Shown: positions 1 to 52,415, numbered from the stretch's first letter. The stretch is DNA of 64,000 nt from Pseudomonadota bacterium (GCA_009924135.1 RFSE01000008.1:2131-66130); one strand, 5' to 3'. Numbers and translations: made by a program. Notes: generated by a model not told the origin, from the sequence alone.

Positions 1-897
1 CAAGTTGTCTCTGGCCAGTCAAAGAGTGGTCCTGGTGCCAGCATCATTTACTCACCCGCCTTCGATCGCGATGTCAGTGTCCGTGCCCTGCCCTGCCTCG
101 TGTCGCATGTGATGAATGGTCGCGCGGTCCTGCCCGCCGCGCTCATCATCGAGTGGCTGGCCCATGGCGCGATTCACGGCAACCCGGGCCTGGCCTTCCA
201 TGGCTTCAACCAGTTCAAAGTGCTCAAGGGGCTCGTCCTCGAAGGCGACACCACCGCGCACGTCACGGTCTCCGCTGCACCCCCGCAAGCCCAGGACGGC
301 ATGCTGGTGGTGCCCGTGCAGTTCACCAGCCGCAACCCCGCCGGCAAGACGACCCTCCACGCGACGGCTGAAATCCTCCTCGCCGACTTCATGCCCGCCG
401 CACCCGATGTCGCGCCGGCCGTGAAGCGCAACGGGATTTTGTCGAAGATGGTTTACGGCGACGGACGCCTCTTCCACGGACCCGACTTCCAATGCATCGA
501 GGCGCTTGAAGTCTGCAACGCCGGCAACGCGGCCGCGCTCGTGCGCTCCTCGCCCGCACCGAAGCAGATGATCGCCCAGCCGTTGCGCCCCGCCTGGCTG
601 GCTGATCCGCTCGCGCTCGACGCCGCGTTCCAGCTCATGATCTTGTGGAGCACCGCGCAGCGGTCCGCGCCTTCACTGCCCTGTGCGCTGCGCAGCTTCC
701 GGCAGTTTGCCGCCTTCCCCAAGACCGGCGGCAGCCGCGTGGTCGCCTCCATTACTTCCGCCAACACGCCGGTCGCCGTGGCCGACCTCCAGTTCTTCGA
801 CCGCGACGGCGGCCTGGTCGCGCTGGGCGAAGGTTATGAGTTCGTCGTGGACGCCAACCTCCGCGAAGCCTTCCGCCAGAACCACCTGCCCGCGTGA
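1..897 (+). CDS. 3' end of a PfaA/Pfa2-like PUFA/polyketide synthase subunit (C-terminal PKS-type dehydratase domain); the gene continues upstream of the window
   Basis: Frame 1 is open from nt 1 to TGA 895-897. It carries the HxxxGxxxxP motif (HVMNGRAVLP) and the DAAFQ motif of PKS dehydratases. Its stop overlaps the GTG start of the next gene (GTGA 894-897). Confidence 0.8.
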   Translation, partial: QVVSGQSKSGPGASIIYSPAFDRDVSVRALPCLVSHVMNGRAVLPAALIIEWLAHGAIHGNPGLAFHGFNQFKVLKGLVLEGDTTAHVTVSAAPPQAQDGMLVVPVQFTSRNPAGKTTLHATAEILLADFMPAAPDVAPAVKRNGILSKMVYGDGRLFHGPDFQCIEALEVCNAGNAAALVRSSPAPKQMIAQPLRPAWLADPLALDAAFQLMILWSTAQRSAPSLPCALRSFRQFAAFPKTGGSRVVASITSANTPVAVADLQFFDRDGGLVALGEGYEFVVDANLREAFRQNHLPA

Positions 898-2234
898 AGT
901 TCGGCGAACCTATCGCCATCGTCGGCATGGGCGGCGTCTTTCCCGGCGCCCGCTCGCTGGATGAGTTCTGGCAGATCATCGCCGCCGGTCGTGACACCAG
1001 CCGTCCCGCACCGCCGGGTCGTTGGCGGCTGAATTCCGCCGACATCCTTCACCCCACGCCGGGCACTCCCGACCGTGTTTACACCGACCGCGCCTGTTTC
1101 ATTGAAGGCTTCGCTCTCGACCCGGCCGGACTGGACATCGACCACGAGCTGCTCGCACAGCTTGATCCGGTCGTCCATTTGCTGCTCGCCGCCGGCCGCG
1201 ACGCGTTCACGAGTGCAAAAACGTCCGCGTTGGATCGGAGCCGCGTTGGCATCGTCCTGGGCCACATTGCATTGCCGACGGAAAGCTCCTCCAAGCTTTG
1301 CGAGGAAGCCCTCACGCCGCTGCTAGAACAGGCAACCTTTGGCACCGAAACAGCATTGGCCTGCAAAACCCATCCGCTCAACCGCTACGTCGCGGGCCTG
1401 CCGGCTGGCATCCTCGCCCAGGCGCTCGGCCTTGGCGGGGGCACGCGCACGCTCGATGCCGCATGCGCCTCGTCGCTCTACGCGCTCAAGCTCGCCTGCG
1501 ACGAACTCCACGCCGGCCGCACCGATGCGATGCTCGCGGGCGGCGTCTCGCGCCCTGACTCGCTCTACACGCAGATGGGTTTCGCGCAGCTCCGCGCGCT
1601 GGCGACCACCGGTCGTTGCACCCCGTTTGATGCGGCGGCCAGCGGGTTGATCGTCGGCGAAGGTGCGGGCGTCGTCGTGTTGAAGCGTCTTTCCGATGCC
1701 CTCCGGGACGGCGATGAAATCCACGCGCTCATCCGGGGCATCGGTCTGAGCAACGACCTCGACGGAAACCTTCTCTCCCCCGCGGGCGAAGGGCAGCTTC
1801 GTGCACTCCGCCTCGCTTACGACGCGGCGGGCTGGGAGCCGGAGAGCGTCGAGTTTATCGAGTGCCACGCCACTGGCACACCCGTCGGCGACGCGGTGGA
1901 GTTCTCGAGTCTCAACCAGCTTTGGTCCGACCGCACCTGGCAGCCCGGCCAGTGCACCCTTGGCGCGGTCAAGGCCAACGTCGGCCACCTGCTCACCGGT
2001 GCGGGCGCAGCGGGTTTGCTGAAAGTCCTGCTCTCGCTTCGGCACAACACGCTCCCGCCGGTCGCCAACTTTCAGCGGCCCTCCGACAAAATCCCGCTGG
2101 CGCAAAGTCCCTTCCGCGCGTTGACGCAAAGCCAGCCCTGGCCACGCCGCGCCGATGGCCAGCCCCGCCGGGCCGCCATCAACGGCTTCGGCTTCGGGGG
2201 CATCAACGCGCACGTCCTCATCGAGGAGTGGTGC
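894..2234 (+). other. Ketosynthase (KS) domain of the megasynthase
   Basis: Cys-His-His triad motifs DAACASS / CHATGT / KANVGH; ends near GFGGINAHVLIEEW. Confidence 0.85.
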
Positions 2235-5200
2235 GGCCCCGACGCGGGTAGCAGCCGACGTAAGGAGGCTCCATATAAACTGGGCGTGCGGAATGCGGAA
2301 TGCGGAATGCAATCAGAGCCTCCTCACGTCGGCTGCTACCCAGCGAGTGCGCCCATTGCCATCATCGGCCTCGGCACCCACATCGGCCCGTGGCGCAACC
2401 TCCATTCCTTCGGCGCCCGCGTCCTCGGGGCGGACACCGAGACATCGCCCAAGGCCCGTGAAAAATGGCGCGGACTCACACCAGTCGCGCTCGCTGCGCA
2501 GCCCGGATATTTCGTTGATGACCTGGCCATTCCAGTCAGCCGTTATCGCATTCCCCCGCGCGAACTGGCCGAGCTTTTGCCGCAGCAAGCGCTCATGCTC
2601 GAAGTGGCCCGCGACGCCCTCACCGACGCCAGCGTGAACGAGCCGAACGCCACACGCACCGGTGTGTTCATCGGCCTTGGCCTTGATCTGCGCACGACTG
2701 ACTTTCATTTCCGCTGGTCCATGCTGGACCGTGCCGGCGACTGGGCCAACCGCCTGCCTGCGGACGTTACGGAACACGACCAGGCCGCATGGGCCTCGCG
2801 GGTCGTCGAAGCCGCCGGTCCGCCGCTCAACGCCGACCGCACGATGGGCGCGCTTGCCGGCACCAATGCCAGCCGTATTGCGAAAGAATTCCGCATCGGC
2901 GGGCAGAGCTATACGGTATGCAGCGAGGACACGAGCGGCCTGAGCGCCCTGGAGATCGCCGTGCGTGCACTCCAGCGCGGTGAACTCGATCTTGCCCTGG
3001 CCGGTGGCGTGGAACTGACCGGGGACCTCCGCAGCCGGCTCGCAGAAGCCGCACTAGGCAAAGCAGAAATTCCCGGTGAAGGCGCCGTGGCCATCGTGCT
3101 CAAACGCCTGGCGGATGCCACCCGTGACGGCGACCGCATCTATGCCGTAATTCACGGACTGGGTGTGGGTAATTCCGTCGAACTGGCATCCTCGCGTGGC
3201 TTGGCGGAAGCCAGCTTTGCCAGCGTCCCGGTGATTTCAAGCGCGTCCACTGAGATTGGTCACACCGGCTCCGCGTCCGGCCTAGCTGATCTGGCGAAAG
3301 CCGCGCTCGCGTTGTATGCTGAAATAATTCCAGCCAACACAAACGCCGCCCCGCAGCACTGGCTGCGCGACCGCGCCGACGGTCCCCGCCGCGCCGCCAT
3401 CACCGCGTCCAGTGTAGATGGGAATGCGGTGACCGTGGTGTTGGAGGAATGCGCGCCTAAGGCGTTCGCCGCCGTTCCCCCTCACCCTAACCCTCTCCCG
3501 CCGGGAGAGGGGACAGCCACGGAAGCTACGCGTACTCCTATTGCATCCGGCTCCGACCCAGCGCTGGCTACGTTTCCCTCTCTCCCAGCGGGAGAGGGCC
3601 GGGGTGAGGGAGAACGCGTCCTAATTGCTAACAGGAATCGGAACCACCGCACCTTGATGGCTGCGAAGAAAAGTGAAGCCCTCTTCACCTTCGCGGCCCC
3701 CGACACCGCCGGATTGCTCGCGCAACTTGATGCCGTCCGTCGCCTTGCTGCGGCTGCCCCGCAAGCCTCGCTCGATACGGTTGCCCGCCGGAGCACGGAC
3801 TCGCGGACGTGGGCGTCCGCGCTCCACCGTCTCGCCTTCATTGCCCAGGACCGCGCACAGCTTCACCGCCTCCTCGACGCCGCCACCGCGCTCATCCAGC
3901 AGCCACGCAGTAGCGCGGCCCTACCATCCCCCGACCACCGCGACCGCGACCGGCTCTTCTTCACGCCGCCCGCCGAGCGCGTTTCCGGCAAGGTCGCCTT
4001 TGTCTTCCCCGGCGCGGGCAACCACTTTGCCGACATGGGCCGCGAGTTGGGCCTGCTGTTCCCCGAGGTTCTTCGCGCCCAGGACCGTGAAAACGAACGG
4101 CTCGCAAGCCAGTTGTTTGCCGCGCAGTTTTGGAACGCCACCGGCCCCGTCACCGATCAGCGCGCCTCCATCTGCGGCCAGGTCGCGCTCGGTGCGTTGG
4201 TCAGCGATATCGCGACCTCCCTGGGACTCCGTCCCGATGCCGCCATTGGTTACAGTCTCGGAGAAAGCACCGGCCTGTTCGCCCTCCGCGCCTGGACCGC
4301 ACGCGATGAAATGCTCGCCCGCGTCACGGCTTCGACTCTGTTCACCAAGGACCTCACCGGCGAACCGGCCGCGCTCCGTCGCGCCTGGCAGGTTGCCGAG
4401 GACCAGCCCGTCGCGTGGCTGGCCGGGCTCGTAGATCGGCCCGCCGAAGCGGTCCGGGCGGCGATGACCAGCCTCGATCGCACCTACATCCTGATCGTCA
4501 ACACCCCGGATGAATGCGTCATCGGCGGCGACGCGGCGCAGGTGCGGGAACTCGTGACAAAGCTTGGCTGTCATTTCTTCGTGCTCGACGGGGTGAGCAC
4601 GGTGCATTGCGACCTGCTGAAACCCGTGCTGGAGCCCTATCGCGAGCTGCACCGCTTCCCGACCACGCCGCCGGCCGGAGTGACGTTTTACAGTGGCGGC
4701 TGGGGCCGCAGCTACGTGCCGGACCGCGAGACGGCCGCCGCTGCCATTGTTGCACAGGCCAGTGCCACCATTGATTTTCCGCAGGTTGTTCGCACGGCGT
4801 ACAATGATGGCGTGCGTTTCTTTGTCGAAATGGGACCAGGCGCGTCATGCTCACGCATGATTTCCCAAATTCTCGCCGGGCAACCACACATGGCCCGCTC
4901 TTTGTGCGTCTCGGCCAAGGAGCCGCTGCTGGATGTGCTGCGGGTTTTGGGCGCGCTCTGGGCCGAAGGGTTGCCGGTAAATTTGACTCCGCTGTACGGC
5001 ACGGTTGAAGAGGAGACTACGCCGGAGCCAACCGGCAAGCTGGTCCTCATTCCCATCACCGGTGCGCCGATCGTTCCGCCGCCCCTGCCGAAGGGAAGCG
5101 CACGTATCCCTCAGGTTGATTCAGGGGCAAAGCCTTCGGGGTCTCTTTCACAATCTCAGACTGGATTGCAAACCACCGTCGCGTTCCCCCTCACCCCGGC

Positions 5201-8078
5201 CCTCTCCCCTGGGGAGGGGGAGAACGTCAGCCCGTCTTTCGTAAGTCCGAACGCGTCCGGCTTCAGCCCAGCGCGGGATGCAATCCTCCCTCTCCCGGAG
5301 GGAGAGGGCCGGGGTGAGGGGGAAGGGCGCGGAATTTCCACCCTGGTTGCCGGCTTTACGAATGACTTGCCGGGCGACCCGTTTGAAGCCGAACTGCTCA
5401 CGGCAATGGCGCAGGCGCAGGCAACGACGTTGCAGGCTCATGAAACTTACCTGGCTTTCTCGGAGGGCGTGTTCAAGACCCTGTCCGAAGCGGTGCAGAC
5501 GCAATTCGACTTGCTGCACCGCGCATCACAGGGCGGGATTGAATGGGAATCACTGCCCAGTCCCGATGCATTCGGTTTGAACCCAGCCCAGGATGCATTT
5601 CCCCCTCTCCCCGCAGGACAGGGAGAATGGCGCGGATCAACCGTTGCCAACGAGTCGTTGAGCGGGCATCCAAACCCAGTGCAGCCGCCAGCCACTGTCC
5701 CCCGCGCCCTCACGCGCGAGCAGTGCTTCGAATTTGCCATCGGCAAGATTGGCAATGCCTTGGGCGCGACGTTCGCCGAGGCAGATTCATTTCCCACGCG
5801 GGTACGCCTGCCAGACGCGCCACTGCAACTCGTGGACCGCATCACGGCCATCGAGGGCGAGCCGCGTTCGATGACGCACGGACGGGTCGTGACTGAGCAC
5901 GACATCCACCCCGGCGCTTGGTATCTCGACTGTGGACGCATCCCGACGTGCATCGCAGTCGAGGCGGGGCAGGCGGATCTGTTTCTCTCCGGCTACCTCG
6001 GCATCGATTTTGAGACTCGCGGACTGGCGATGTATCGCCTGCTGGATGCGAAAGTTTGCTTCCATCGCCACCTGCCCGGACCGGGCGAGACGATCCGGTA
6101 CGACATCCGTATCGAACGCTTTTTCCAACAGAGCGGCGTATGGCTCTTCAAGTTCAACTTCGAGTCCACGGTCAACGGCCAGCCGCTGCTCACGATGACC
6201 GAAGGCTGTGCGGGTTTCTTTACACCGCAGGACCTGGCCGCCGGCAAGGGCATCGTGCGCACCTCGCTGCAGCTCAAACCCCAGCCCGGCATGCGCCCGG
6301 CGGATTGGGAAGACTTTGTACCGATGGCGGTCGAGTCGTATTCGGTGGAGCAACTGGACGCTTTGCGCACCGGCAACCTGGCAGCGTGCTTCGGAGAAAA
6401 GTTCGCCGGACTGAAGCTCGCGCAACCGGTCACATTGCCCGGTGGACGAATGCGGCTCGTACATCGCATTGAACGGCTGGAGCCCACGGGCGGGCGTTTC
6501 GGTCTCGGACTGATTCGTGGCGAAGCGGACATTCACCCGGACGACTGGTTCATCACGTGCCATTTCGTGGACGACCGCGTGATGCCGGGCACGTTGATGT
6601 ATGAGTGCTGCCTGCACACGCTGCGGGTGCATCTGCTGCGGCTGGGCTGGGTCGTTGAGGCGCGCCCCGGCGTGGCGCTGGAGCCCGTGCCCGGTGTCGT
6701 GGGCCAGCTCAAGTGCCGCGGACAGGTGCTGGAGACAACGAAGCTCGTGACCTACGAGATCGAGATCAAGGAAATCGGCTACGGACCCGAACCGTACGTG
6801 ATCGCGGACGCGCTGATGTACGCGGATGGCAAGGCCATCGTGGAAATCGGCAACATGAGCCTGCGCTACACGGGCGTGACGCGGGAAGACCTGCGGGCGA
6901 CTTGGAGTGCGGCGGAGCGCCGGGCTCTGACCCGGCGTGGTGAAACCGTCGGACATGAACGCGCCGGGTCGGAGACCGGCGCTCCTAATCCTGCACTCTA
7001 CGGCCCCGAACGCATCCGCGCCTTCGCCGTGGGCAATCCCTCGGAAGCCTTTGGCGAACCGTACCGCATCTTTGATGCCCAACGGCGCATCGCGCGGCTG
7101 CCGGGGCCGCCTTATCAATTCCTCGATCGCGTCACCGAGATACGCGGTTGCGAGGCGTTCAAAATGGTCGCAGGTGGTGAGGTGGCGGCGGATTACGACG
7201 TGCCGGCAGACGAGTGGTGTTTTGCCGCGAACCGCCAAGGCGACATGCCGTTCGCCGTGCTGCTGGAAATCGCGCTCCAACCCTGCGGCTGGCTCTCGGC
7301 CTACCTCGGTTCCGCGCTGACGAGCAGCGATGACCTGTCCTATCGCAATCTCGGCGGCACCGGTACGCAGTTCGCTCCGGTGCGACCGGATGTCGGCACG
7401 CTCACCACCCGCATCAAAAACACCCGCCTCTCGAGTTCGGCCGGGATGATCATCCAATGGTTTGATTTCGAGGTCTGGGCGGGGGCGGAAAAGATCTATC
7501 GCGGCGATACCTACTTTGGATTCTTTCCGAAAGCGGCCTTGGAAAAGCAGGAAGGCATCAAGGGCGCGAAGCTCTACGAACCCACCGCCGCCGAACTGGC
7601 GCGGGCGAAATCACTCCCCTACCCGACCACGGCACCGTTCGCGGACACGATGATGCGGATGGTGGACGACCTCACCGTCTTCGTCGCGGACGGCGGGCCG
7701 AAGCAACTGGGCTTCCTCCGTGGCACCAAGCGCGTGAACCCCGACGAGTGGTTCTTCAAGGCCCATTTTTACCAGGACCCCGTGGTGCCCGGCTCGCTCG
7801 GTTTGGAATCCTTCCTGCAACTGCTTAAGTTCGCTGCGGTGGAACGCTGGGGCCACACCCCGGGCACGCGTTGGGAGGCCGTGGCCACCAATACAAAACA
7901 CGAGTGGACCTATCGTGGCCAGGTCATCCCTCGGGACTCCCTCGTGACCGTGGAGGCAGCGGTCGTGGCGGTAAACGACGCGGAGAAGACCTTGACCGGG
8001 GAAGGCTTCCTGAGCGTGGATGGCCGGGTGATTTACGGAATGAAAAACTTTGTCGTGCGCGGCGTGCCCGAAAACTGA
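894..8078 (+). CDS. PUFA-synthase type megasynthase, KS-CLF-AT-DH-DH (PfaB/PfaC-like, myxobacterial Pfa3-like layout without an AGPAT domain)
   Basis: Single 2394-aa ORF. Motifs: KS (DAACASS, CHATGT, KANVGH), a second KS-like domain lacking the active Cys (TVCSEDTSG), AT (GYSLGE), and two FabA-type hot-dog didomains (HPDDWFITCHFVDDRVMPG; NPDEWFFKAHFYQDPVVPG). Confidence 0.9.
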   Translation: MKFGEPIAIVGMGGVFPGARSLDEFWQIIAAGRDTSRPAPPGRWRLNSADILHPTPGTPDRVYTDRACFIEGFALDPAGLDIDHELLAQLDPVVHLLLAAGRDAFTSAKTSALDRSRVGIVLGHIALPTESSSKLCEEALTPLLEQATFGTETALACKTHPLNRYVAGLPAGILAQALGLGGGTRTLDAACASSLYALKLACDELHAGRTDAMLAGGVSRPDSLYTQMGFAQLRALATTGRCTPFDAAASGLIVGEGAGVVVLKRLSDALRDGDEIHALIRGIGLSNDLDGNLLSPAGEGQLRALRLAYDAAGWEPESVEFIECHATGTPVGDAVEFSSLNQLWSDRTWQPGQCTLGAVKANVGHLLTGAGAAGLLKVLLSLRHNTLPPVANFQRPSDKIPLAQSPFRALTQSQPWPRRADGQPRRAAINGFGFGGINAHVLIEEWCGPDAGSSRRKEAPYKLGVRNAECGMQSEPPHVGCYPASAPIAIIGLGTHIGPWRNLHSFGARVLGADTETSPKAREKWRGLTPVALAAQPGYFVDDLAIPVSRYRIPPRELAELLPQQALMLEVARDALTDASVNEPNATRTGVFIGLGLDLRTTDFHFRWSMLDRAGDWANRLPADVTEHDQAAWASRVVEAAGPPLNADRTMGALAGTNASRIAKEFRIGGQSYTVCSEDTSGLSALEIAVRALQRGELDLALAGGVELTGDLRSRLAEAALGKAEIPGEGAVAIVLKRLADATRDGDRIYAVIHGLGVGNSVELASSRGLAEASFASVPVISSASTEIGHTGSASGLADLAKAALALYAEIIPANTNAAPQHWLRDRADGPRRAAITASSVDGNAVTVVLEECAPKAFAAVPPHPNPLPPGEGTATEATRTPIASGSDPALATFPSLPAGEGRGEGERVLIANRNRNHRTLMAAKKSEALFTFAAPDTAGLLAQLDAVRRLAAAAPQASLDTVARRSTDSRTWASALHRLAFIAQDRAQLHRLLDAATALIQQPRSSAALPSPDHRDRDRLFFTPPAERVSGKVAFVFPGAGNHFADMGRELGLLFPEVLRAQDRENERLASQLFAAQFWNATGPVTDQRASICGQVALGALVSDIATSLGLRPDAAIGYSLGESTGLFALRAWTARDEMLARVTASTLFTKDLTGEPAALRRAWQVAEDQPVAWLAGLVDRPAEAVRAAMTSLDRTYILIVNTPDECVIGGDAAQVRELVTKLGCHFFVLDGVSTVHCDLLKPVLEPYRELHRFPTTPPAGVTFYSGGWGRSYVPDRETAAAAIVAQASATIDFPQVVRTAYNDGVRFFVEMGPGASCSRMISQILAGQPHMARSLCVSAKEPLLDVLRVLGALWAEGLPVNLTPLYGTVEEETTPEPTGKLVLIPITGAPIVPPPLPKGSARIPQVDSGAKPSGSLSQSQTGLQTTVAFPLTPALSPGEGENVSPSFVSPNASGFSPARDAILPLPEGEGRGEGEGRGISTLVAGFTNDLPGDPFEAELLTAMAQAQATTLQAHETYLAFSEGVFKTLSEAVQTQFDLLHRASQGGIEWESLPSPDAFGLNPAQDAFPPLPAGQGEWRGSTVANESLSGHPNPVQPPATVPRALTREQCFEFAIGKIGNALGATFAEADSFPTRVRLPDAPLQLVDRITAIEGEPRSMTHGRVVTEHDIHPGAWYLDCGRIPTCIAVEAGQADLFLSGYLGIDFETRGLAMYRLLDAKVCFHRHLPGPGETIRYDIRIERFFQQSGVWLFKFNFESTVNGQPLLTMTEGCAGFFTPQDLAAGKGIVRTSLQLKPQPGMRPADWEDFVPMAVESYSVEQLDALRTGNLAACFGEKFAGLKLAQPVTLPGGRMRLVHRIERLEPTGGRFGLGLIRGEADIHPDDWFITCHFVDDRVMPGTLMYECCLHTLRVHLLRLGWVVEARPGVALEPVPGVVGQLKCRGQVLETTKLVTYEIEIKEIGYGPEPYVIADALMYADGKAIVEIGNMSLRYTGVTREDLRATWSAAERRALTRRGETVGHERAGSETGAPNPALYGPERIRAFAVGNPSEAFGEPYRIFDAQRRIARLPGPPYQFLDRVTEIRGCEAFKMVAGGEVAADYDVPADEWCFAANRQGDMPFAVLLEIALQPCGWLSAYLGSALTSSDDLSYRNLGGTGTQFAPVRPDVGTLTTRIKNTRLSSSAGMIIQWFDFEVWAGAEKIYRGDTYFGFFPKAALEKQEGIKGAKLYEPTAAELARAKSLPYPTTAPFADTMMRMVDDLTVFVADGGPKQLGFLRGTKRVNPDEWFFKAHFYQDPVVPGSLGLESFLQLLKFAAVERWGHTPGTRWEAVATNTKHEWTYRGQVIPRDSLVTVEAAVVAVNDAEKTLTGEGFLSVDGRVIYGMKNFVVRGVPEN
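2246..2341. repeat. 96-nt hairpin element (26-nt arms, 25/26 complementary) lying in frame in the KS-CLF linker
   Basis: Arms GGGTAGCAGCCGACGTAAGGAGGCTC (2246-2271) and GAGCCTCCTCACGTCGGCTGCTACCC (2316-2341). The loop contains GCGGAAT x3 (2288-2308). Confidence 0.85.
2352..3449 (+). other. Chain-length-factor-like (CLF) KS-homologous domain
   Basis: KS fold (PIAIIGLG ... NAVTVVLEE), but the position aligned to the catalytic Cys reads CSEDTSG (Asp instead of Cys). Confidence 0.75.
3471..3618. repeat. Inverted pair of REP-like units (CCCTCTCCC-N3-GGGAGAGGG hairpin plus GGTGAGGGAGAACGCG tail) inside the CLF-AT linker
   Basis: The right unit 3573-3618 is near-identical to the intergenic unit 46783-46826. 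Confidence 0.85.
3987..4885 (+). other. Acyltransferase (AT) domain
   Basis: VAFVFPGAGNHF start and GYSLGE nucleophile motif; typical PfaB-like AT length. Confidence 0.8.
5180..5331. repeat. Second inverted pair of the same REP-like family inside the AT-DH linker
   Basis: CGCGTTCCCCCTCACCCCGGCCCTCTCCCCTGGGGAGGGGG ... CCCTCTCCCGGAGGGAGAGGGCCGGGGTGAGGGGG. Confidence 0.8.
5570..5634. repeat. Degenerate half element of the same family inside the AT-DH linker
   Basis: AACCCAGCCCAGGATGCATTTCCCCCTCTCCCCGCAGGACAGGGAG parallels the spacer-plus-hairpin of 3548-3600 and 5258-5310. Confidence 0.6.
5700..6900 (+). other. First FabA-like dehydratase/isomerase didomain
   Basis: Hot-dog pair ending with the canonical FabA motif HPDDWFITCHFVDDRVMPG (about nt 6534-6590). 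Confidence 0.8.
6914..6985. repeat. 72-nt hairpin element (24-nt arms, 22/24 complementary) in frame between the two DH didomains
   Basis: Arms GGAGCGCCGGGCTCTGACCCGGCG and CGCCGGGTCGGAGACCGGCGCTCC. The same arm sequence recurs intergenically at 44342-44367 and 44643-44668. Confidence 0.8.
6992..8075 (+). other. Second FabA-like dehydratase didomain
   Basis: Second hot-dog pair with NPDEWFFKAHFYQDPVVPG (about nt 7737-7795). The protein ends here with no further domain. Confidence 0.8.
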
Positions 8079-8080
8079 AC

Positions 8081-9133
8081 ATGATGCCCAGCTATCAACG
8101 CGTCTTCCTGTCCGCCCTCGGCTATGAGCTGGGACCGGTTGTCGTCACCACCGCAGAACTGGAGGAACGCCTTGCCCCTGCCTTCACCCGCCTCGGCATC
8201 CAGCCCGGACAACTCGAGGCATGGACCGGCATCTGTGAGCGACGCTGGTGGCAGCCCAACACTCCTCTCTCGCGCGGAGCCACGGCCGCCGCCCAGAAGG
8301 CCTTGCAGAAGGCCGGGCTCAGTGCGGGTGCGCTGGGGATGCTGCTCTACTGTGGCGTGTGTAGAGAAAACTTCGAGCCGGCCACCGCCTGCGCGGTCGC
8401 GGATGGCATCGGATTGCGCGGCGGGGCATTTGTGTACGACATCAGCAACGCCTGTCTGGGCGTGCTTAATGGAGTGATCGAGGTCGCCAACCGGATTGAA
8501 CTGGGCCAGATCAAAGCCGGACTGGTCGTCTCGTGCGAAAGCTCACGGGAGATCAACGAAATCGCCCTGGCAAAGATGCTCGGCGGCACCGGCGGCATGA
8601 GCGAATTCGCCCCGGCCCTGGCCACCTTCACCGGCGGCTCGGGAGCCGTGGCCGTGTTGCTGACCGATGGTTCGTTTCCTGGACTGGACAATCATCGCCT
8701 CTTCGGTGCGGTCTCGGAAACCGCACCGGAGTTTCACGAGTTGTGCCAGTGGGGCACCAAGCCAACCCCGCAGGGCCACTTCGAACAGTTCATGCTCACC
8801 GATTCCGTTGCCGTGCTGAAGAACGGCACAGCCCTCGGAGCCAAGACCTGGCGCGAATTCTTGCAGGCGATGAGCTGGACTCAGAGCTCCGTGGACCGGC
8901 TGATATGCCACCAAGTTGGCAGCCAGCATCAGGACTCGTTTCTGAAACTCACCGGACTGCCGCGCTCGAAGGATTTCACAACCTTTCGCCATCTCGGCAA
9001 CATGGGCACCGCCGCGTTGCCGGTGACCGCCGCGATCGCGGATGAACGCGGCATTCTCAAACCCGGTCAAAACGTCGCCTTTCTCGGAATCGGCAGCGGT
9101 CTGAGCTGCATCATGATGGGACTCAAATGGTAA
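8081..9133 (+). CDS. oleA: OleA-type thiolase-fold condensing enzyme (FabH-like)
   Basis: ATG lies 2 nt after the megasynthase stop. OleA-like motifs FEPATA, DISNACLGVLNG, ICHQVG and C-terminal LGIGSGLSC..KW. Sits directly upstream of oleBCD homologues. Confidence 0.8.
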   Translation: MMPSYQRVFLSALGYELGPVVVTTAELEERLAPAFTRLGIQPGQLEAWTGICERRWWQPNTPLSRGATAAAQKALQKAGLSAGALGMLLYCGVCRENFEPATACAVADGIGLRGGAFVYDISNACLGVLNGVIEVANRIELGQIKAGLVVSCESSREINEIALAKMLGGTGGMSEFAPALATFTGGSGAVAVLLTDGSFPGLDNHRLFGAVSETAPEFHELCQWGTKPTPQGHFEQFMLTDSVAVLKNGTALGAKTWREFLQAMSWTQSSVDRLICHQVGSQHQDSFLKLTGLPRSKDFTTFRHLGNMGTAALPVTAAIADERGILKPGQNVAFLGIGSGLSCIMMGLKW

Positions 9134-10023
9134 ATTTTCGTCGCGAACACTATCCCTTTGTCGGCCACTTTCTGGACCGCGATGGCGTTGCCATGCACTA
9201 CCTCGACGAGGGCAGTGGCGAAGCGGTCGTGATGCTCCATGGCAACCCGACCTGGTCCTTCTACTACCGCCGGCTCGTGCTCGGCCTGCGCGCCCAGTGC
9301 CGGATCATCGTGCCGGACCACATCGGGTGTGGCTTCTCGGACAAGCCGGACGACGCGCATTACGAGTTCACGCTTGAACGGCGCGTGCAGGATTTGGATG
9401 CCCTCATCAAACACCTGAATCTGCCGCCGAAAATCACCCTCGTGCTGCACGACTGGGGCGGCATGATTGGCATGACTTGGGCCGCGCGAAACCCCCACCG
9501 CATCGCCCGGCTCGTCCTGTTGAACACCGCGGCGTTTCACCTGCCCAAGACCAAGAAGCTCCCGCCTTCGCTCTGGGTTTGCCGCAACACCCCGCTCGAC
9601 GCCCTGCTCGTGCGCAAGACCGGTCTGTTTGTGCGCCTGGTCACGCGCTGGGGCGTGCGCACCCGCGTGCTCTCCCCCTCTGAACGCGACGCCTATCTCA
9701 CCCCGCACGCCGCCAAGGCGAGCCGGCTCGCGCAACTGCGCTTCGTGCAGGACATTCCCCTCACGCCCGACCACCCGACCTACGCCCTGATCAGCGATGT
9801 GCAAGCCAAGCTGGGCCAGTTCCGCGCCACGCCGACGCTGATTTGCTGGGGCGACCAGGACTGGGTGTTCGACCAGCACTTTCTCGCCGAATGGCAGCGC
9901 ATCCTGCCGACTGCCGAAGTCCACCGGTTCCCCGACGCCGGCCACTTGGTGCTCGAAGACAAGCCGGACGAAATCCAGTCGCTGGTGAAACAGTTCTTCG
10001 CCCGGCATCCGAACCAGCAGTGA
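9127..10023 (+). CDS. oleB: OleB-type alpha/beta hydrolase (haloalkane-dehalogenase-like; beta-lactone decarboxylase family)
   Basis: HGNPTWSFYYR and HDWGG nucleophile elbow. Its start overlaps the oleA stop (ATGGTAA). Confidence 0.8.
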   Translation: MVNFRREHYPFVGHFLDRDGVAMHYLDEGSGEAVVMLHGNPTWSFYYRRLVLGLRAQCRIIVPDHIGCGFSDKPDDAHYEFTLERRVQDLDALIKHLNLPPKITLVLHDWGGMIGMTWAARNPHRIARLVLLNTAAFHLPKTKKLPPSLWVCRNTPLDALLVRKTGLFVRLVTRWGVRTRVLSPSERDAYLTPHAAKASRLAQLRFVQDIPLTPDHPTYALISDVQAKLGQFRATPTLICWGDQDWVFDQHFLAEWQRILPTAEVHRFPDAGHLVLEDKPDEIQSLVKQFFARHPNQQ

Positions 10024-11708
10024 ACGTGTCCGCCACGGTCACATCGAACATCGCCTCGCATCTCTCCGCGATGGCTGCCCAGCAGCCGGGGACGCCCGCC
10101 GTCATTGCGCCGCATCGCGATCGGGCCGGGCGGCTCCATTACTCGCAACTCACCTTTCGCGAACTCGACGACACCAGCAGCCAGCTGGCACGGGGCTTCG
10201 AGCGGTTGGGCATCCGGCGTGGCGTACGCACGGCGCTCATGGTGCCACCAAGTCTCGACTTTTTCGCCGTCACCTTCGCGCTGTTCAAACTGGGCGCAGT
10301 GCCGGTGCTCATCGATCCGGGCATCGGCCTGAAGAACTTTGGCAACTGCTTGAACGAGGCGGAGCCAACCGGCTTCATCGGCATTCCCAAGGCCCATGCT
10401 GCCCGTGTGGTTCTGGGCTGGGGACAAAAACCCATCAAAATCCCAATTACTGTCGGCACGAAGTGGTTTTGGGGTGGTCACTCGTTGGCTCAAGTTCTGT
10501 CGCTCGGCGGCACGGGGACACCCGATTCGAGGCCGGAGGAAGCGGCAACAAACTATCCTTCGCAACCAGACGAAACCGCCGCCATTCTTTTCACCAGTGG
10601 CAGCACGGGCGCGCCCAAGGGAGTCGTTTACACGCACGCAATTTTTTCCGCCCAGGTTGAACAAGTGCGCCAGCTCTACGGCATACAACCCGGCGAAATT
10701 GATCTGCCAACCTTTCCCCTCTTCGCTCTTTTCGGCCCCGCGCTGGGCATGACCGAAGTGCTGCCGGAAATGGACTTCACCCGCCCGGCACAAGCCGACC
10801 CGGTGAAACTGGTCGCCACCATCGAACGCTTCCGTGTGACCAACATGTTCGGCTCGCCAGCCCTCATCAACCGGCTCGGACGGCATGGCGAGGGACACGG
10901 AATCAAGCTGCCCACCCTCCGCCGTGCCATCTCCGCCGGCGCCCCCGTGCCGGCCAAAGTACTCGCGCGATTTGCCCGGATGCTTCCGTCCGACGCCCAG
11001 GTATTCACGCCCTACGGAGCAACCGAATGCCTGCCGGTCGCGAGCATCGGGAGCAATGAGATCGTTGGAGAAACCCGTGTCCAGACCGAACTGGGCAAAG
11101 GCGTTTGCGTCGGCCGACCCGTGCCGGGACTCACCCTGAAGATCCTTCGCATCACGGACGAAGCCCTCGCCGCGTGGAGTGATGATCTCGAACTGCCACC
11201 CGGTGAAATCGGCGAGATCGCCGTGCAAGCACCCCAAGCCTCGCGTGCGTACTTCAATCGCGAGCAGTCCACGGCACTCGCAAAAATCACGACCCGTGAC
11301 AGCGGCTTCTTCCACCGCATGGGTGACGTTGGCTATCGCGACGCGCGCGGGCGCATCTGGTTTTGTGGTCGCAAATCACACCGGGTCATCACGCGGGCCG
11401 GTACGCTGTTCACGATTCCCTGCGAAGCCATCTTCAACACGCACCCGGCAGTCTTCCGGTCCGCCCTGGTCGGCGTACCACGGGGTGATGATACCGAGCC
11501 GGTCATCTGCATCGAATTGGAAGCGGAGGCACGTAATCTTGAGGAGACCAAGCTACGCGCGGAGCTGCTGGCCCTCGGTGCGAAATTCCCACATACTCAG
11601 GCGATTCGCACCGTGTTGTTTCATCCCGCCTTCCCGGTGGATATCCGGCATAACGCGAAAATCTTCCGCGAGAAACTGGCCGTGTGGGCAAAGGACCAAC
11701 GCGGATGA
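10020..11708 (+). CDS. oleC: OleC-type AMP-dependent synthetase (beta-lactone synthetase family)
   Basis: FTSGSTGAPKGV and YGATE motifs. GTG 10020 overlaps the oleB stop (GTGA). The ORF-track start 9843 lies inside oleB. Alternative ATG at 10071. Confidence 0.8.
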   Translation: MNVSATVTSNIASHLSAMAAQQPGTPAVIAPHRDRAGRLHYSQLTFRELDDTSSQLARGFERLGIRRGVRTALMVPPSLDFFAVTFALFKLGAVPVLIDPGIGLKNFGNCLNEAEPTGFIGIPKAHAARVVLGWGQKPIKIPITVGTKWFWGGHSLAQVLSLGGTGTPDSRPEEAATNYPSQPDETAAILFTSGSTGAPKGVVYTHAIFSAQVEQVRQLYGIQPGEIDLPTFPLFALFGPALGMTEVLPEMDFTRPAQADPVKLVATIERFRVTNMFGSPALINRLGRHGEGHGIKLPTLRRAISAGAPVPAKVLARFARMLPSDAQVFTPYGATECLPVASIGSNEIVGETRVQTELGKGVCVGRPVPGLTLKILRITDEALAAWSDDLELPPGEIGEIAVQAPQASRAYFNREQSTALAKITTRDSGFFHRMGDVGYRDARGRIWFCGRKSHRVITRAGTLFTIPCEAIFNTHPAVFRSALVGVPRGDDTEPVICIELEAEARNLEETKLRAELLALGAKFPHTQAIRTVLFHPAFPVDIRHNAKIFREKLAVWAKDQRG

Positions 11709-12697
11709 ACGCGCTCGTAACCGGCGGCGGCGGCTTTCTCGGGCTCGCGATCGTACGGGCGCTGCGGGCGCGTGGCGATAAGGTGCGCAGCTTGTCGCGG
11801 CAGGAACACCCGGCCCTGCAAGCCCTCGGCGCAGAGCATGTGCGCGGCGATGTCGGCGACCCGGTCGCCGTCAGCGCGGCGGTTCGGGGCTGCGACATAG
11901 TGTTCCACGTTGCGGCAAAAGCCGGGTTGTGGGGGCCTTACGAGGACTACCACCGGGCCAATGTGCTCGGCACCGAAAACGTCCTGTCAGCGTGCCGGCA
12001 GCAGGGCATCCGCAAACTCGTTCACACCAGTTCACCGAGTGTCGTGTTCAACGGTCAGGACATGGAAGGCGTGAACGAATCCGTCCCCTACCCTCTGCAC
12101 TTCGAGGCTCATTACCCGCACACGAAGGCCCTCGCGGAACGGCTGGTCCTTGAAGCCAATTCTCCGCCCCTCGCAACCGTTGCGCTTCGTCCGCACCTCA
12201 TCTGGGGACCGGGGGACAACCATTTGCTGCCCCGGCTCATCGCACGGGCAAGGTCTGGTCAGCTCCGCCGCATCGGCTCGCAACAGAACCGCGTGGACAC
12301 CGTGTACATCGACAACGCAGCAGAAGCCCACCTCCTCGCTGCCGACGCGCTCCAACCCGGAGCCGCGTGCGCCGGCAAGGCCTACTTCATCTCAAACGGT
12401 GAACCGGTTCCGCTGTGGGACATGGTCAACCAGTTGCTCGCGGCTGCCGGCCTGCCACCGGTGACGCGCACGGTGCCCGTGTCCGTCGCGCTGGCGCTCG
12501 CGTGGTCCTTGGAGACCTTTGCCCGCGTAACTGGCAGCACGCGCGAGCCGAGGCTGACCCGTTTCATGGCGCGCGAAATGTCCACGGCCCACTGGTTCGA
12601 CATCTCGGCGGCCAAGCGCGACTTCGGCTATTTGCCCCGCGTCACCACCGAGGAAGGGCTGCGGCGACTCGCGGCCCACCTGAAGCAAGGCGACTGA
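11705..12697 (+). CDS. oleD: OleD-type NAD(P)-dependent reductase (3-beta-HSD/epimerase family)
   Basis: VTGGGGFLG Rossmann motif and YPHTK (YxxxK). ATG 11705 overlaps the oleC stop (ATGA). GTG 11684 is an alternative start. Confidence 0.8.
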   Translation: MNALVTGGGGFLGLAIVRALRARGDKVRSLSRQEHPALQALGAEHVRGDVGDPVAVSAAVRGCDIVFHVAAKAGLWGPYEDYHRANVLGTENVLSACRQQGIRKLVHTSSPSVVFNGQDMEGVNESVPYPLHFEAHYPHTKALAERLVLEANSPPLATVALRPHLIWGPGDNHLLPRLIARARSGQLRRIGSQQNRVDTVYIDNAAEAHLLAADALQPGAACAGKAYFISNGEPVPLWDMVNQLLAAAGLPPVTRTVPVSVALALAWSLETFARVTGSTREPRLTRFMAREMSTAHWFDISAAKRDFGYLPRVTTEEGLRRLAAHLKQGD

Positions 12698-13485
12698 TGC
12701 TGCGCGACTGGCAAACCCTTTTCGCGCCGCGCCCCCTCGCGACGCGGGCGCTGTGTTTGCAGTTGGACGGACTGGCTTTTCCCTTGTGGTTTGCGAGCAC
12801 CGACGCTGCGGACTTGAAGGAAGTGCTCCCGGTCGATTTTCTGACGGCGGCGGAGCAGGCGCGGGCGGGTGAGTTCAAGTTTGGCCAGCCACGCGAGAAT
12901 TTCACGCTGGGCCGGCTGGCAGGAAAACTGGCACTGACCGGGGCAATGGACGCACGCCCCCCACAAACACCGGGCCTCTCCCCCGACGGGACTGCGGGAG
13001 AAGCACTGGAGCGGAAGTTGCGCGCCTTTGACATTCACAACGGCGAACGCGGTGAGCCGTTGGTGCGTGCTGGCGACGACAAGTTACCGACCCTGGCGGT
13101 AAGTCTCAGTCACGTGAATGGGTTGGGCACGGCAGTGGCGTTTCCGGCAGGCGAGCGGGTTGGGATGGACTTAGAATTGATTGATGCCCAGCGGGCTGAG
13201 ACCGTGCGAAGAGGAGTGCCGTTGTCCGTGGAGGAAGAGGCTTGGTTGAGGATCACTTCACTTCCGGAAGCAACCGCGCTGCTGTTGCTGTGGACGGCGC
13301 GGGAAGCCTTGGGCAAGGCACTCGGCTGCGGGCTGGCCTGTCAGTGGGAAACACTGGCGCTCCGGGAAATCGAAGCGGCGGGTGACGGTGTCTGGCGGGG
13401 CCGCTTCCGGCATCATCCGGAGTTCAGTTGCCTTTGCTGGGTAGGACCCGCAGCGGTGATATCGACCGCGTTTACGGCGCGTTGA
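12697..13485 (+). CDS. Sfp/PfaE-type 4'-phosphopantetheinyl transferase
   Basis: GMDLELI and WTAREALGKA motifs. The ATG overlaps the oleD stop (TGATG). The ORF-track start 12415 lies inside oleD. Confidence 0.8.
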   Translation: MLRDWQTLFAPRPLATRALCLQLDGLAFPLWFASTDAADLKEVLPVDFLTAAEQARAGEFKFGQPRENFTLGRLAGKLALTGAMDARPPQTPGLSPDGTAGEALERKLRAFDIHNGERGEPLVRAGDDKLPTLAVSLSHVNGLGTAVAFPAGERVGMDLELIDAQRAETVRRGVPLSVEEEAWLRITSLPEATALLLLWTAREALGKALGCGLACQWETLALREIEAAGDGVWRGRFRHHPEFSCLCWVGPAAVISTAFTAR

Positions 13486-13501: not shown

Positions 13502-13521
13502 AGCTGGACGACCGTCCAGCT
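13502..13521. terminator. Short hairpin between the convergent PPTase and pheA genes (possible bidirectional terminator, no T tract)
   Basis: AGCTGGACG-AC-CGTCCAGCT, partly overlapping the pheA stop codon. Confidence 0.3.
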
Positions 13522-14581
13522 ACTCTGCGTTGGGGTACGAACCGAGCACCTTCACGAAGCTGCACTGGGAGCCCAGTTGAGCAATGGCCTTGGCCACTTT
13601 GGTGTCGTTCGAGTGGCCGTCGCAGTCCACGAAGAAGAAATACTCCCAGGCGCGGCGCTTGCTCGGGCGGCTCTCGATCTTAGTCATGTTCAGCCGGTAT
13701 TTCCGGAACGGAGCGAGCGCGCGGTGCAACGCGCCCACCTCATCCGCGATGCTGAACATGAGGCTGGTCCGATCGTGGCCGGTGGGCGGGCTGCACTTGC
13801 GACCGAGCACGAGGAAACGGGTGGCGTTGGCGGCATTGTCCTGAATGTCGTGTTCGAGCACGGGCACGCCGTATTTCTCGGCGGCAAGCAAGCCGGCGAT
13901 GGCGGCAGAATGCTTCTCCTGCGCGGCCAGCTCAGCACTGCGGGCGTTGGAAGACGTTTCCACAATTTCCGCCCCGGCAAGGTTCTTGTGCACCCATGCG
14001 CGGCACTGCGCAAGTGACTGCGGGTGGACGTAGAGCTTCTTGATGCGCTCGCGGCGGGACTTGCTCACGAGGCAGTGCGAAATGGGCAGGACGATCTGGG
14101 AGACGATCTTCAGGTCGCTGTCCACGAACATGTCGAGCGTGTGCGTGACGACGCCCTCGGTCGAATTCTCGACCGGCACCACGCCATAATCGGCGCGGCC
14201 CTTGGCAACCTCATTGAAGACATCGGCGATGGTCTTCTGCGCCGCGTAGAGCAGGCTGGAGCCGAACCGCTGGATGGCCGCCTGATGCGTGAACGTCGCC
14301 TCCGGTCCGAGGTAGGCGATGGTCATGGACTTCTCCAACGCGAGCGCGCTGGACATGATCTCGCGGTAGATCGCCCGGAGCGAGGCATCGGTGATGGGCC
14401 CCGTGTTCTTCTTGATGATGCGCTGGAAGACCTGGCGCTCACGGGAGGGAACGTAGATTTCCTCGCCGGCCTTGCGTTTGATTTCGCCGATGCCCAGCAC
14501 GTGTTTCGTGCGCTCGTTCAGCAGCGCGACGAGCTTGGCATCCAGCTCATCAATGGCCTTGCGGTGGTCGGTGATCGTCAT
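13520..14581 (-). CDS. pheA: Bifunctional chorismate mutase / prephenate dehydratase (P-protein)
   Basis: N-terminal CM helix region (IDELDAKLVALLNERT), PDT domain and C-terminal ACT domain (ESRPSKRRAWEYFFFVD). ATG 14581 is preferred; TTG 14596 is an alternative. Confidence 0.9.
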   Translation of the reverse strand: MTITDHRKAIDELDAKLVALLNERTKHVLGIGEIKRKAGEEIYVPSRERQVFQRIIKKNTGPITDASLRAIYREIMSSALALEKSMTIAYLGPEATFTHQAAIQRFGSSLLYAAQKTIADVFNEVAKGRADYGVVPVENSTEGVVTHTLDMFVDSDLKIVSQIVLPISHCLVSKSRRERIKKLYVHPQSLAQCRAWVHKNLAGAEIVETSSNARSAELAAQEKHSAAIAGLLAAEKYGVPVLEHDIQDNAANATRFLVLGRKCSPPTGHDRTSLMFSIADEVGALHRALAPFRKYRLNMTKIESRPSKRRAWEYFFFVDCDGHSNDTKVAKAIAQLGSQCSFVKVLGSYPNAE

Positions 14582-14592
14582 GGGCGTGGCGT

Positions 14593-15333
14593 TCAAGCGC
14601 GGGAAGACGGTTCGGTCGGAGGCTCGGTGGGTGAAGTTTCGCGGGGCTCGGGACTAGCCGGCTCAGCCGGAGTTGACTCCTTTTCCGCCACTTCCTGCAT
14701 TGCCAGTTGCTCCGGTGGAGCGGTGGCCAGCCCCGGTTCGACGGTAAGCAGCGACTCGGGCTTCTTCACGGGAATCTTCCGCAGCTCGTCGGCGGCCGGA
14801 AGGTCCTCCAGCCCGCGCAGGCCAAAGTACTCGAGGAAGGCCGGAGTCGTGCCGTAAAGCGCCGGTCGCCCGACCACTTCGGCCCGGCCGGTTTGTTCCA
14901 CGATGCCCCGCTCCAGCAGCGTCTGCATGACACCGTCCACCGCCACGCCACGAATCTGCTCGATCTCCGCCCGCGTGAGCGGCTGGCGATAGGCAATGAT
15001 GGCCAGCGTCTCAAGGGCGGGCTGGGAAAGGCGACCCGGACGGCTCTTCTCCCCGACCAGCGTCTTGATCCACGGCGCATATTCAGGCTGGCTGACAAAT
15101 TGCCAGGCCCCGGCCACGCAGACGAGGCGGAAGGTCCGGGCAGCGGCATCGTGCTCCTTCGCCAGTTCATCCAACAGGGCGATGATTTCCTCGTCCTTGA
15201 TCTTCTTGAAAGACTTGGCGAGCAGGTCCTCCGAGTTGTCGGCGGTCTGCGAGAACACATCGCGGAGGTCTTTCGGACTCAGCGGCTTCTGGGCGTTGAA
15301 GAGGATAGCCTCGATGATGGACTTCAGTTCCAT
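14593..15333 (-). CDS. scpB: Segregation and condensation protein B
   Basis: IIEAILFNAQKPLSPKDL and ITRAEIEQIRGV winged-helix motifs; sits downstream of scpA. Has a Pro/Glu-rich C-terminal tail. Confidence 0.85.
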   Translation of the reverse strand: MELKSIIEAILFNAQKPLSPKDLRDVFSQTADNSEDLLAKSFKKIKDEEIIALLDELAKEHDAAARTFRLVCVAGAWQFVSQPEYAPWIKTLVGEKSRPGRLSQPALETLAIIAYRQPLTRAEIEQIRGVAVDGVMQTLLERGIVEQTGRAEVVGRPALYGTTPAFLEYFGLRGLEDLPAADELRKIPVKKPESLLTVEPGLATAPPEQLAMQEVAEKESTPAEPASPEPRETSPTEPPTEPSSRA

Positions 15334-20175: not shown

Positions 20176-20310
20176 GCGTCGGGCGAGGCTAGGAAATGGC
20201 AGGCGAAATGCAAGGCTGGGCACGGGCGGGGCATCATTCCGTCGCGCCGGCAGTGGAAAAGAATTTTTGGCGCTTGGAAGGGTCCGCGTTCTTGGCCTTC
20301 AATCCCCGCC

Positions 20311-52411: not shown

Positions 52412-52415
<4 letters not shown>
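49728..52415 (-). CDS. Large secreted tetratricopeptide-repeat protein
   Basis: Signal peptide ([18 protein letters not shown]) and many TPR-like A/Y/L repeats across 895 aa. The GTG start overlaps the uvrA stop (GTGA). Confidence 0.7.

Follow-up and report, generated by a model that had tools for sequence, protein, structure and literature searches.

What does a bacterium make when the genes of a polyunsaturated fatty acid (PUFA) synthase run directly into the four ole genes of olefin synthesis, and is such a locus a new kind of system or a new member of a known one? The question is raised by a 64,000-nucleotide stretch of DNA recorded under the name Pseudomonadota bacterium (GCA_009924135.1, RFSE01000008.1:2131-66130), hereafter the window, in which an earlier reading, hereafter the sequence-only reading, had proposed a dedicated assembly line for a polyunsaturated very-long-chain hydrocarbon. 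The locus is a real, intact operon of eight genes and about 21 kb, in the order pfaD-pfaA-pfaBC-oleA-oleB-oleC-oleD-PPTase, the last gene encoding a 4′-phosphopantetheinyl transferase (PPTase). This Pfa-Ole operon lies in a freshwater Limisphaerales chromosome and probably makes a very-long-chain polyene, most likely C31:9. Because the gene order has been published for Geobacter bemidjiensis and recurs in many phyla, we regard the locus as a new verrucomicrobial member and not as a new kind.

The window cuts the operon: its 3′ two-thirds lie inside, and its first gene, pfaD, begins some 7.5 kb further upstream (L001:1564). The features are listed below, in window coordinates except for pfaD; L001 denotes numbering on the source contig, a 112.9-kb metagenome scaffold of the European Nucleotide Archive (ENA) identified by an exact match to PfaBC, and other L-numbers are loci of the genome survey described later.

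L001:1564-3087, start outside the window: pfaD, ER; TIGR02814, 630 bits
1-897, + strand: 3′ end of pfaA, PS-DH pseudo-dehydratase tail; Pfam PS-DH and PKS_DH_N, TIGR02813 positions 2300-2581
894-8078, + strand: pfaBC fusion, 2394 amino acids; Pfam, NCBIfam, PDB 6RIW
8081-9133, + strand: oleA, acyl-CoA:acyl-CoA alkyltransferase-type thiolase, 350 amino acids; NF006720
9127-10023, + strand: oleB, haloalkane-dehalogenase-like alpha/beta hydrolase, predicted beta-lactone decarboxylase, 298 amino acids; Pfam Abhydrolase_1
10020-11708, + strand: oleC, olefin beta-lactone synthetase of the AMP-dependent ligase family, 562 amino acids; NF045786, NF045785, NF006754
11705-12697, + strand: oleD, 2-alkyl-3-oxoalkanoate reductase, extended short-chain dehydrogenase/reductase (SDR), 330 amino acids; NF042422, NF042423
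12697-13485, + strand: PPTase in the pfaE position, 262 amino acids; Pfam ACPS
13502-13521, no strand: inverted repeat, possible bidirectional terminator hairpin; read from the sequence

The seven genes of the window lie on the same (+) strand with all frames open, and the six junctions named by the sequence-only reading are each present at the coordinates it gave: GTGA at 894-897 (pfaA/pfaBC), TGA-AC-ATG at 8076-8083, ATGGTAA at 9127-9133, GTGA at 10020-10023, ATGA at 11705-11708 and TGATG at 12695-12699. The largest gap at any of them is 2 nt. Upstream, pfaD and pfaA are likewise separated by 2 nt, which completes seven junctions, and the spacer 5′ of pfaD measures 216 nt. The start codons used here do not give the longest possible open reading frames (ORFs); they agree with independent gene calls on the source contig and with full-length alignments to family models and homologues. 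Any single junction is ordinary operon packing, since unrelated same-strand genes of the window overlap likewise, for example by four bases at 41401/41398 and at 52415/52412. The tight packing of the whole is no accident but is conserved with the cluster, because similar joints recur across 80 related loci, with median spacings of +7 nt at pfaBC/oleA, -1 nt at oleA/oleB, -4 nt at oleB/oleC, -4 nt at oleC/oleD and -1 nt at oleD/PPTase. We infer that the eight genes form a single transcript and are translationally coupled.

The first three genes encode a complete Pfa synthase. The sequence-only reading expected an ER and a KS-MAT-ACPn-KR subunit upstream of the window, and extending the contig reveals both: PfaD scores 630 bits on TIGR02814 (cut-off 449), and PfaA, encoded by L001:3090-10004 (2304 amino acids), scores 1693 bits on TIGR02813 (cut-off 1010) and has the layout KS-MAT-ACPx4-KR-DH, with four PP-binding stretches. 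The PKS-type DH end that the earlier reading saw in its first gene is the PS-DH tail of this PfaA. The second gene had been described as KS-CLF-AT-(FabA DH)x2, a layout borne out by Pfam and NCBIfam matches and by motif and self-alignment checks. Within PfaBC, the KS spans amino acids 5-456 with Cys191 at the nucleophile position, and a KS-like CLF, in which Thr679 replaces the cysteine, extends to about amino acid 1000. The AT follows at about 1029-1367, with Ser1121 in the motif GYS1121LG, and the C-terminal region, from about 1400 to 2394, holds four hot-dog stretches that resemble FabA and correspond to two DH domains, the protein ending in the second. The closest solved structure in the PDB is 6RIW (chain ‘ORF10’; 368 bits over amino acids 5-714), which we take to be the KS-CLF didomain of Moritella PfaC. 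Apart from the AT, the Pfam scan of PfaBC finds no AGPAT or acyltransferase domain, as the earlier reading had claimed. A PfaA with tandem ACPs, a PfaD and a pfaBC fusion of KS-CLF-AT-DH2 are the domain content of a Type I pfa cluster.

The fourth gene opens the ole half of the operon, and the sequence-only reading had staked its case on the thiolase siding with OleA and not with FabH. It does so. The protein scores 445 bits on the OleA model NF006720 (cut-off 285), on which OleA of Xanthomonas campestris, taken as a control, scores 475 bits, whereas the protein reaches 77-105 bits on FabH models, whose cut-offs are 249-292. In the PDB, X. campestris OleA is the best match at 185 bits, and the top FabH reaches 76 bits. 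Finally, the catalytic residues Glu117, Cys143, His285 and Asn315 of X. campestris OleA correspond to Glu99, Cys125, His277 and Asn307, which are invariant in an alignment of 12 homologues, at an overall identity of 35% to the X. campestris protein. Close homologues are named ‘acyl-CoA:acyl-CoA alkyltransferase’ by the Joint Genome Institute. All of oleB, oleC and oleD lie directly 3′ of oleA, where the published criterion looks for at least two such neighbours (PMC7064751). On these matches the 350-amino-acid thiolase is a predicted OleA, not a FabH.

The assignments of OleB, OleC and OleD made by the sequence-only reading hold by best matches, motifs and gene order. OleB matches Pfam Abhydrolase_1 (117 bits), and its best named matches, all under the cut-offs, are haloalkane dehalogenases (HLDs), which score 140-172 bits among NCBIfam models and 100-120 bits among PDB structures. 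It carries a nucleophile Asp109 in the motif HDWG and His273 in GH273L, and lies between oleA and oleC, the combination expected of an HLD-like OleB. The published account of X. campestris OleB, an HLD-III-like enzyme that decarboxylates beta-lactones (PMC10503415), agrees with the window protein, which is HLD-like and has an Asp-His pair. OleC scores 686 bits on NF045786 (cut-off 900) and 662 bits on NF045785 (cut-off 850), covering model positions 2-543 of 544; it passes the cut-off of 478 on the broader NF006754 with 741 bits, and the next-best unrelated family reaches 187 bits. Its motifs include TSGSTGAPKG and YGATE. OleD aligns over its full length to NF042422 (455 bits) and NF042423 (413 bits), both with cut-offs of 580, followed by HpnA at 169 bits, and has the nucleotide motif GGGGFLG and the SDR motif YxxxK as YPHTK. 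The sequence-only reading would have given up its case had the OleBCD candidates failed the family thresholds. In part they do, in that OleC and OleD miss the equivalog cut-offs; on the other side, both find their best full-length matches among Ole families, and OleC passes NF006754. The equivalog cut-offs are narrow, tuned to Xanthomonas-like and Shewanella-like clades. We read the shortfall as divergence and not as non-membership, because the full-length best matches score 2.5 to 4 times any non-Ole family, and we do not take it as a refutation, since oleABCD also stand in canonical order and OleC passes the broader model.

The operon closes with a divergent PPTase. Its C-terminal half (amino acids 154-248) matches Pfam ACPS (PF01648) at 39.5 bits against a cut-off of 25, and its N-terminal lobe has no Pfam match and a weak match to HetI in NCBIfam. 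The motifs read RGEP, VSLSH, GMDLE and WTAREALGK. A length of 262 amino acids, the ACPS domain and WTAREALGK as the W/F-x-x-K/R-E-A motif place it in the Sfp type (group II), so the earlier assignment to that type stands, divergence notwithstanding. PUFA-type PPTases, including those of Type I clusters, are described by the motifs P0 (hRxhLS), P1a (x[G/D]xP) and P1b ([F/S]NxSH) (Shulse & Allen 2011, PMC3098273). By regular-expression matching, the window protein has P1a (RGEP) and no P0, and the place of P1b reads VSLSH, which fits the hShxH (P1b′) of the other group; it thus differs from reported Type I PPTases in lacking both P0 and FNxSH. The protein also evolves fast, with 56-67% identity where OleA has 79-87%, and 31-38% where OleA has 62-73%. 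Between the convergent stops of the PPTase gene and pheA lies an inverted repeat with perfectly matched 8-bp arms around a 4-nt loop, AGCTGGAC-GACC-GTCCAGCT (13502-13521), which overlaps the pheA stop codon. It is possibly a bidirectional terminator hairpin marking the end of the operon, and was missed by the terminator scan because it has no T-run.

How widely the arrangement occurs was assessed from the relatives of OleA, which exceed 7,700 at E <= 1e-30. A scan of species-representative genomes gave 264 relatives, and the best 80 were annotated by tblastn with the proteins of the operon; G. bemidjiensis is not among these 80, to which the following counts refer. In 69 of the 78 assessable loci, pfaBC lies on the same strand no more than 1 kb upstream of oleA. 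Downstream, 59 of 61 loci have all of oleB, oleC and oleD, and oleB keeps its place between oleA and oleC in 59/61. A PPTase 3′ of oleD resembles that of the window in 22 of 55 loci, and is a canonical Sfp type in L061, L062 and L080. Labels on the linked loci come from no fewer than eight groups of phylum or class rank: Verrucomicrobiota, Burkholderiales/Nitrosomonadales, Desulfobacterales, Desulfuromonadales, Planctomycetota/Phycisphaerae, Elusimicrobiota, Lentisphaeria, an acidobacterial metagenome-assembled genome (MAG) and Xenobia. The sequence-only reading had proposed a search for pfa3-oleA adjacency in genomes of the Planctomycetota-Verrucomicrobiota-Chlamydiota (PVC) superphylum, and adjacent pfaBC and oleA are common both there and beyond.

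The survey also contains departures from this pattern. Six loci (L053, L054 and L062-L065) have oleABCD and no pfaBC within 10 kb upstream; the linkage was thus lost, or never present, in some lineages. Their labels are Verrucomicrobiales, Verrucomicrobiota, Desulfuromonadaceae or Desulfuromonadales, and their OleA proteins share 57-61% identity with that of the window. In L077:3022-15634, from a Lentisphaeria chromosome, and in L059, from a MAG labelled Verrucomicrobia, pfaBC is followed directly by oleA, and oleB, oleC and oleD are absent from the 5-10 kb downstream; in L077 that place is taken by a prephenate-dehydratase-like gene and a phosphoglucomutase-domain gene. These two loci could represent a variant of Pfa with OleA only, perhaps forming a ketone, or their oleBCD could lie elsewhere in the genome. 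In two Elusimicrobia MAGs (L067:1-9983 and L081:2-9276), the gene before oleA matches only the last third of PfaBC, its DH region, and a PfaA-like gene directly precedes it, so the synthase domains may be divided differently there.

This architecture is already described. The sequence-only reading could not say whether the fused operon had been noted before. It has: in G. bemidjiensis, which produces C31:9, pfaD, pfaA, pfaB and pfaC are followed in tandem by oleA, oleB, oleC, oleD and pfaE (Yoshida et al. 2016, PMC4882568), linkage between ole genes and pfa-like clusters is frequent, and the Type I cluster, defined by the pfaBC fusion, is listed in Geobacter, Pelobacter, Desulfuromonas and Gemmata (PMC3098273). 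No verrucomicrobium figures among the pfa-bearing genomes of that survey, and ole genes have been reported in Verrucomicrobia and other PVC bacteria (PMC7158056, PMC10176705). A functional link between Pfa and Ole is known from Shewanella, and the two operons are adjacent in Photobacterium profundum (Allemann et al. 2019, PMC6463001).

Set against these systems, the window stands closest to G. bemidjiensis. Compared by the papers’ descriptions, the two share gene order and the domain sets ER, KS-MAT-ACPn-KR(-DH) and KS-CLF-AT-DH2. The hosts differ, G. bemidjiensis belonging to the Desulfuromonadales-type Deltaproteobacteria and the window to the Verrucomicrobiota; OleA of the window is about 57-58% identical to survey loci labelled Desulfuromonadales or Desulfuromonadaceae. 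The comparator chosen by the sequence-only reading, myxobacterial pfa3, is not the nearest; that place belongs to the Type I pfaBC-fusion cluster (PMC3098273, PMC4882568). Like PfaBC, pfa3 (Type L) unites KS, CLF, AT and two FabA-type DH domains in one polypeptide, but its order is KS-CLF-DH2-AT (PMC3098273), as opposed to KS-CLF-AT-DH2 here, it carries the extra AGPAT domain that PfaBC lacks, and it yields PUFAs for lipids instead of olefins.

Shewanella oneidensis, S. pealeana and P. profundum SS9 join the same two pathways, with genetic evidence that Pfa supplies the 16:4 chain from which OleABCD forms C31:9 (PMC6463001). Their clusters are of Type A, with pfaB and pfaC separate and pfaD last, whereas in the window pfaB and pfaC are fused and pfaD comes first. 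The pfa and ole loci are unlinked in Shewanella and neighbouring operons in P. profundum, as opposed to one operon here. The Shewanella-type systems involve the thioesterase PfaT, none of which is found in the window, and these organisms also place eicosapentaenoic acid in phospholipids. OleABCD of X. campestris belong to the same four enzyme families in the same order, with the catalytic tetrad of OleA conserved and OleB likewise HLD-like; that organism has no pfa partner and uses acyl-CoAs from type II fatty acid synthesis (FAS II), and OleC and OleD of the window fall under the Xanthomonas equivalog cut-offs. Sukovich et al. are said to have found, in 2010, Xanthomonas olefins of C28-C31 with one to three double bonds.

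Since the gene order is identical to that of Geobacter, the mechanism proposed by the sequence-only reading is the accepted one, and its assembly line for a polyunsaturated hydrocarbon gains support from the family assignments, the upstream pfaD and pfaA and the conservation of the cluster. The PPTase would first bring all four ACPs of PfaA into their holo state. The Pfa synthase (PfaA, PfaBC and PfaD) would then work iteratively, turning malonyl units into a methylene-interrupted polyunsaturated acyl chain, most likely 16:4. OleA would link two of these chains head-to-head in a Claisen condensation without decarboxylation, and OleD would reduce the resulting 2-alkyl-3-ketoacid. OleC, with ATP, would close the reduced product to a beta-lactone, and OleB would decarboxylate this to a cis-olefin. 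By analogy with the characterized systems, the product is most likely the very-long-chain polyene hentriacontanonaene (C31:9), formed from two 16:4 chains. We infer the acyl chain made, its transfer from Pfa to OleA and the product; what is observed is the set of genes, their order and packing, their families, the catalytic residues and the conservation across genomes.

Several points weigh against this account. OleC and OleD stay under their equivalog cut-offs, and OleB lacks a model of its own. The divergent PPTase has no P0, carries a VSLSH like that of polyketide and non-ribosomal peptide systems in place of FNxSH and matches nothing in the PDB meaningfully by sequence. Neither a sigma-70-type promoter nor a canonical terminator was found at the operon ends, by scans that are ill-suited to Verrucomicrobiota. 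The host is a MAG, and neither chain length nor degree of unsaturation can be read from sequence. Lastly, a PfaT-type hot-dog thioesterase, which could account for the hand-over from Pfa to OleA, was not found among the small ORFs of the window.

The alternative that survives best keeps the machinery and changes the product: a chain of different length or double-bond number may be passed to OleA. We consider this possible, if well short of probable. The PfaBC of the window is 43-59% identical to relatives labelled Planctomycetota, Phycisphaerae, Elusimicrobia, Desulfobacterales and Desulfuromonadales, and the literature searched holds no lipid data for Limisphaerales. On the other side, Sukovich et al. 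reportedly found in 2010 that C31:9 was the commonest olefin across the phyla tested, a verrucomicrobium included. Chain length in Pfa systems hangs on subtle features of KS, CLF and AT (PMC3098273), which leaves room for another product, but G. bemidjiensis, the sole organism with both this gene order and a reported product, makes C31:9, as does Shewanella (PMC4882568, PMC3098273).

A second alternative concerns expression, and we think it unlikely: internal promoters might drive the ole genes apart from the pfa genes, as tight joints need not mean one transcript or coupling. Room for promoters exists in the close relatives L004, L005, L011, L013 and L014, whose spacers at pfaBC-oleA and oleA-oleB widen to 100-200 nt. 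On the other side, the joints of the window, at no more than 2 nt, leave only promoters inside coding sequence, and the eight genes of the operon run on one strand up to a convergent gene.

It is less likely still that the two halves of the operon merely share regulation, with Pfa mainly feeding PUFA to phospholipids, Ole mainly condensing acyl-CoAs from FAS II and their adjacency reflecting the co-regulation of membrane-adaptation genes. X. campestris OleA does take ordinary C10-C16 acyl-CoAs (PMC7064751), six survey loci have oleABCD with no pfaBC nearby, and in Shewanella pfa and ole are unlinked. Yet pfaBC and oleA adjoin in most assessable loci across the groups listed above, often with overlapping stop and start codons, OleA of Shewanella uses only the Pfa-derived chain despite the presence of FAS II (PMC6463001), and the operon has no AGPAT or thioesterase to send PUFA into lipids. 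We give very little credence to an end product that is a beta-lactone or ketone, with the OleB-like hydrolase in another role such as dehalogenase or esterase: the lack of a dedicated OleB model, the sub-threshold dehalogenase matches and the beta-lactones made by oleACD clusters without oleB (PMC7064751) speak for it, but oleB holds its canonical place here, with overlaps of 7 nt and 4 nt, as it does in nearly all survey loci, and its HDWG Asp and its His agree with the HLD-III-like OleB of X. campestris (PMC10503415).

Returning to a Pfa synthase that supplies OleA, a stronger form of this reading can be framed, which we hold as doubtful: Pfa would serve the hydrocarbon wholly, OleA would take the chain directly from the ACPs of PfaA with no thioesterase or CoA step, the gene overlaps would set the stoichiometry of a coupled Pfa-Ole assembly, and polyunsaturated hydrocarbons would be widespread. 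OleA works with Pfa in fadD-deficient Escherichia coli (PMC6463001); this, together with the lack of a thioesterase and an AGPAT, leaves room for direct ACP-to-OleA transfer.

The surroundings place the operon in its host. The aspartyl-tRNA synthetase (AspRS) of the window shares 95-98% identity with proteins of MAGs labelled Limisphaerales, Pedosphaera and Verrucomicrobiota, and in the closest ole loci the flanking pheA and scpAB genes are 80-96% identical to those of the window. Judged by these matches, the host is a freshwater Limisphaerales (Verrucomicrobiota) bacterium represented by a MAG, and the AspRS match and shared flanks make the cluster a stable chromosomal feature of that lineage. 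Ten survey loci (L002, L003, L005, L006, L013, L014, L018, L030, L036 and L048) bear titles such as ‘Klebsiella pneumoniae’, ‘uncultured Klebsiella sp.’, ‘Akkermansia muciniphila’ or ‘Proteobacteria bacterium’. Where the downstream flank is long enough (L002, L003, L005 and L013), pheA/scpAB are 84-96% identical to those of the window, and we judge these titles unreliable because flank synteny and AspRS matches conflict with them.

Beyond the operon, pheA (13520-14596, minus strand) is convergent with it, and the rest of the window holds housekeeping genes of the chromosome, namely scpAB, glnE, aspS, uvrA, panC and one for a class-I release factor, together with two DUF1501 genes. The last lie at 33624-35048 and 36404-37840; further upstream on the contig there is a gene of the HXXSHH family, and both families are presumably typical of PVC-superphylum genomes. 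The GlnE-family protein (19045-23385) is unusually long at 1446 amino acids. A 600-amino-acid protein (58752-60554) combines DUF116 (amino acids 76-222) with a polyprenyl synthetase domain (amino acids 266-500), and a 176-amino-acid ORF on the minus strand (31484-32014) matches the nucleotidyltransferase families AbiEii and NTP_transf_5, resembling the toxin of a type IV toxin-antitoxin system, although shorter than the family profiles. An Rfam scan of the window gave no matches. Upstream of pfaD, an alpha/beta-hydrolase on the same strand (L001:358-1347, 329 amino acids) was considered as a ninth operon member or off-loading thioesterase and rejected, because of the 216-nt gap to pfaD and because its sole relatives in a metagenome scan (L082 and L083, 45-46% identical) are not beside pfa genes.

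Bacterial polyunsaturated hydrocarbons such as C31:9 are already accepted to arise through the pfa-ole link, and the locus leaves the understanding of this pathway unchanged. It adds a clean, complete and very compact case from an abundant, uncultured freshwater verrucomicrobial lineage. The survey shows that the fused arrangement is common, since the majority of the top 80 among 264 species-level genomes with close OleA relatives have it. Groups beyond the pfa/ole phyla listed in PMC3098273 and PMC7158056 are, by genome label, Burkholderiales, Nitrosomonadales, Xenobia, Lentisphaeria and Phycisphaerae, as well as Elusimicrobia with a pfaBC-type cluster. This bears on estimates of non-cyanobacterial hydrocarbon production and on the choice of a compact 21-kb operon for heterologous olefin production. 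If the dedicated Pfa-Ole assembly holds true, polyunsaturated hydrocarbons would occur widely in the membranes of abundant bacteria of fresh water and soil, in groups labelled Limisphaerales, Burkholderiales, Elusimicrobia and Xenobia.

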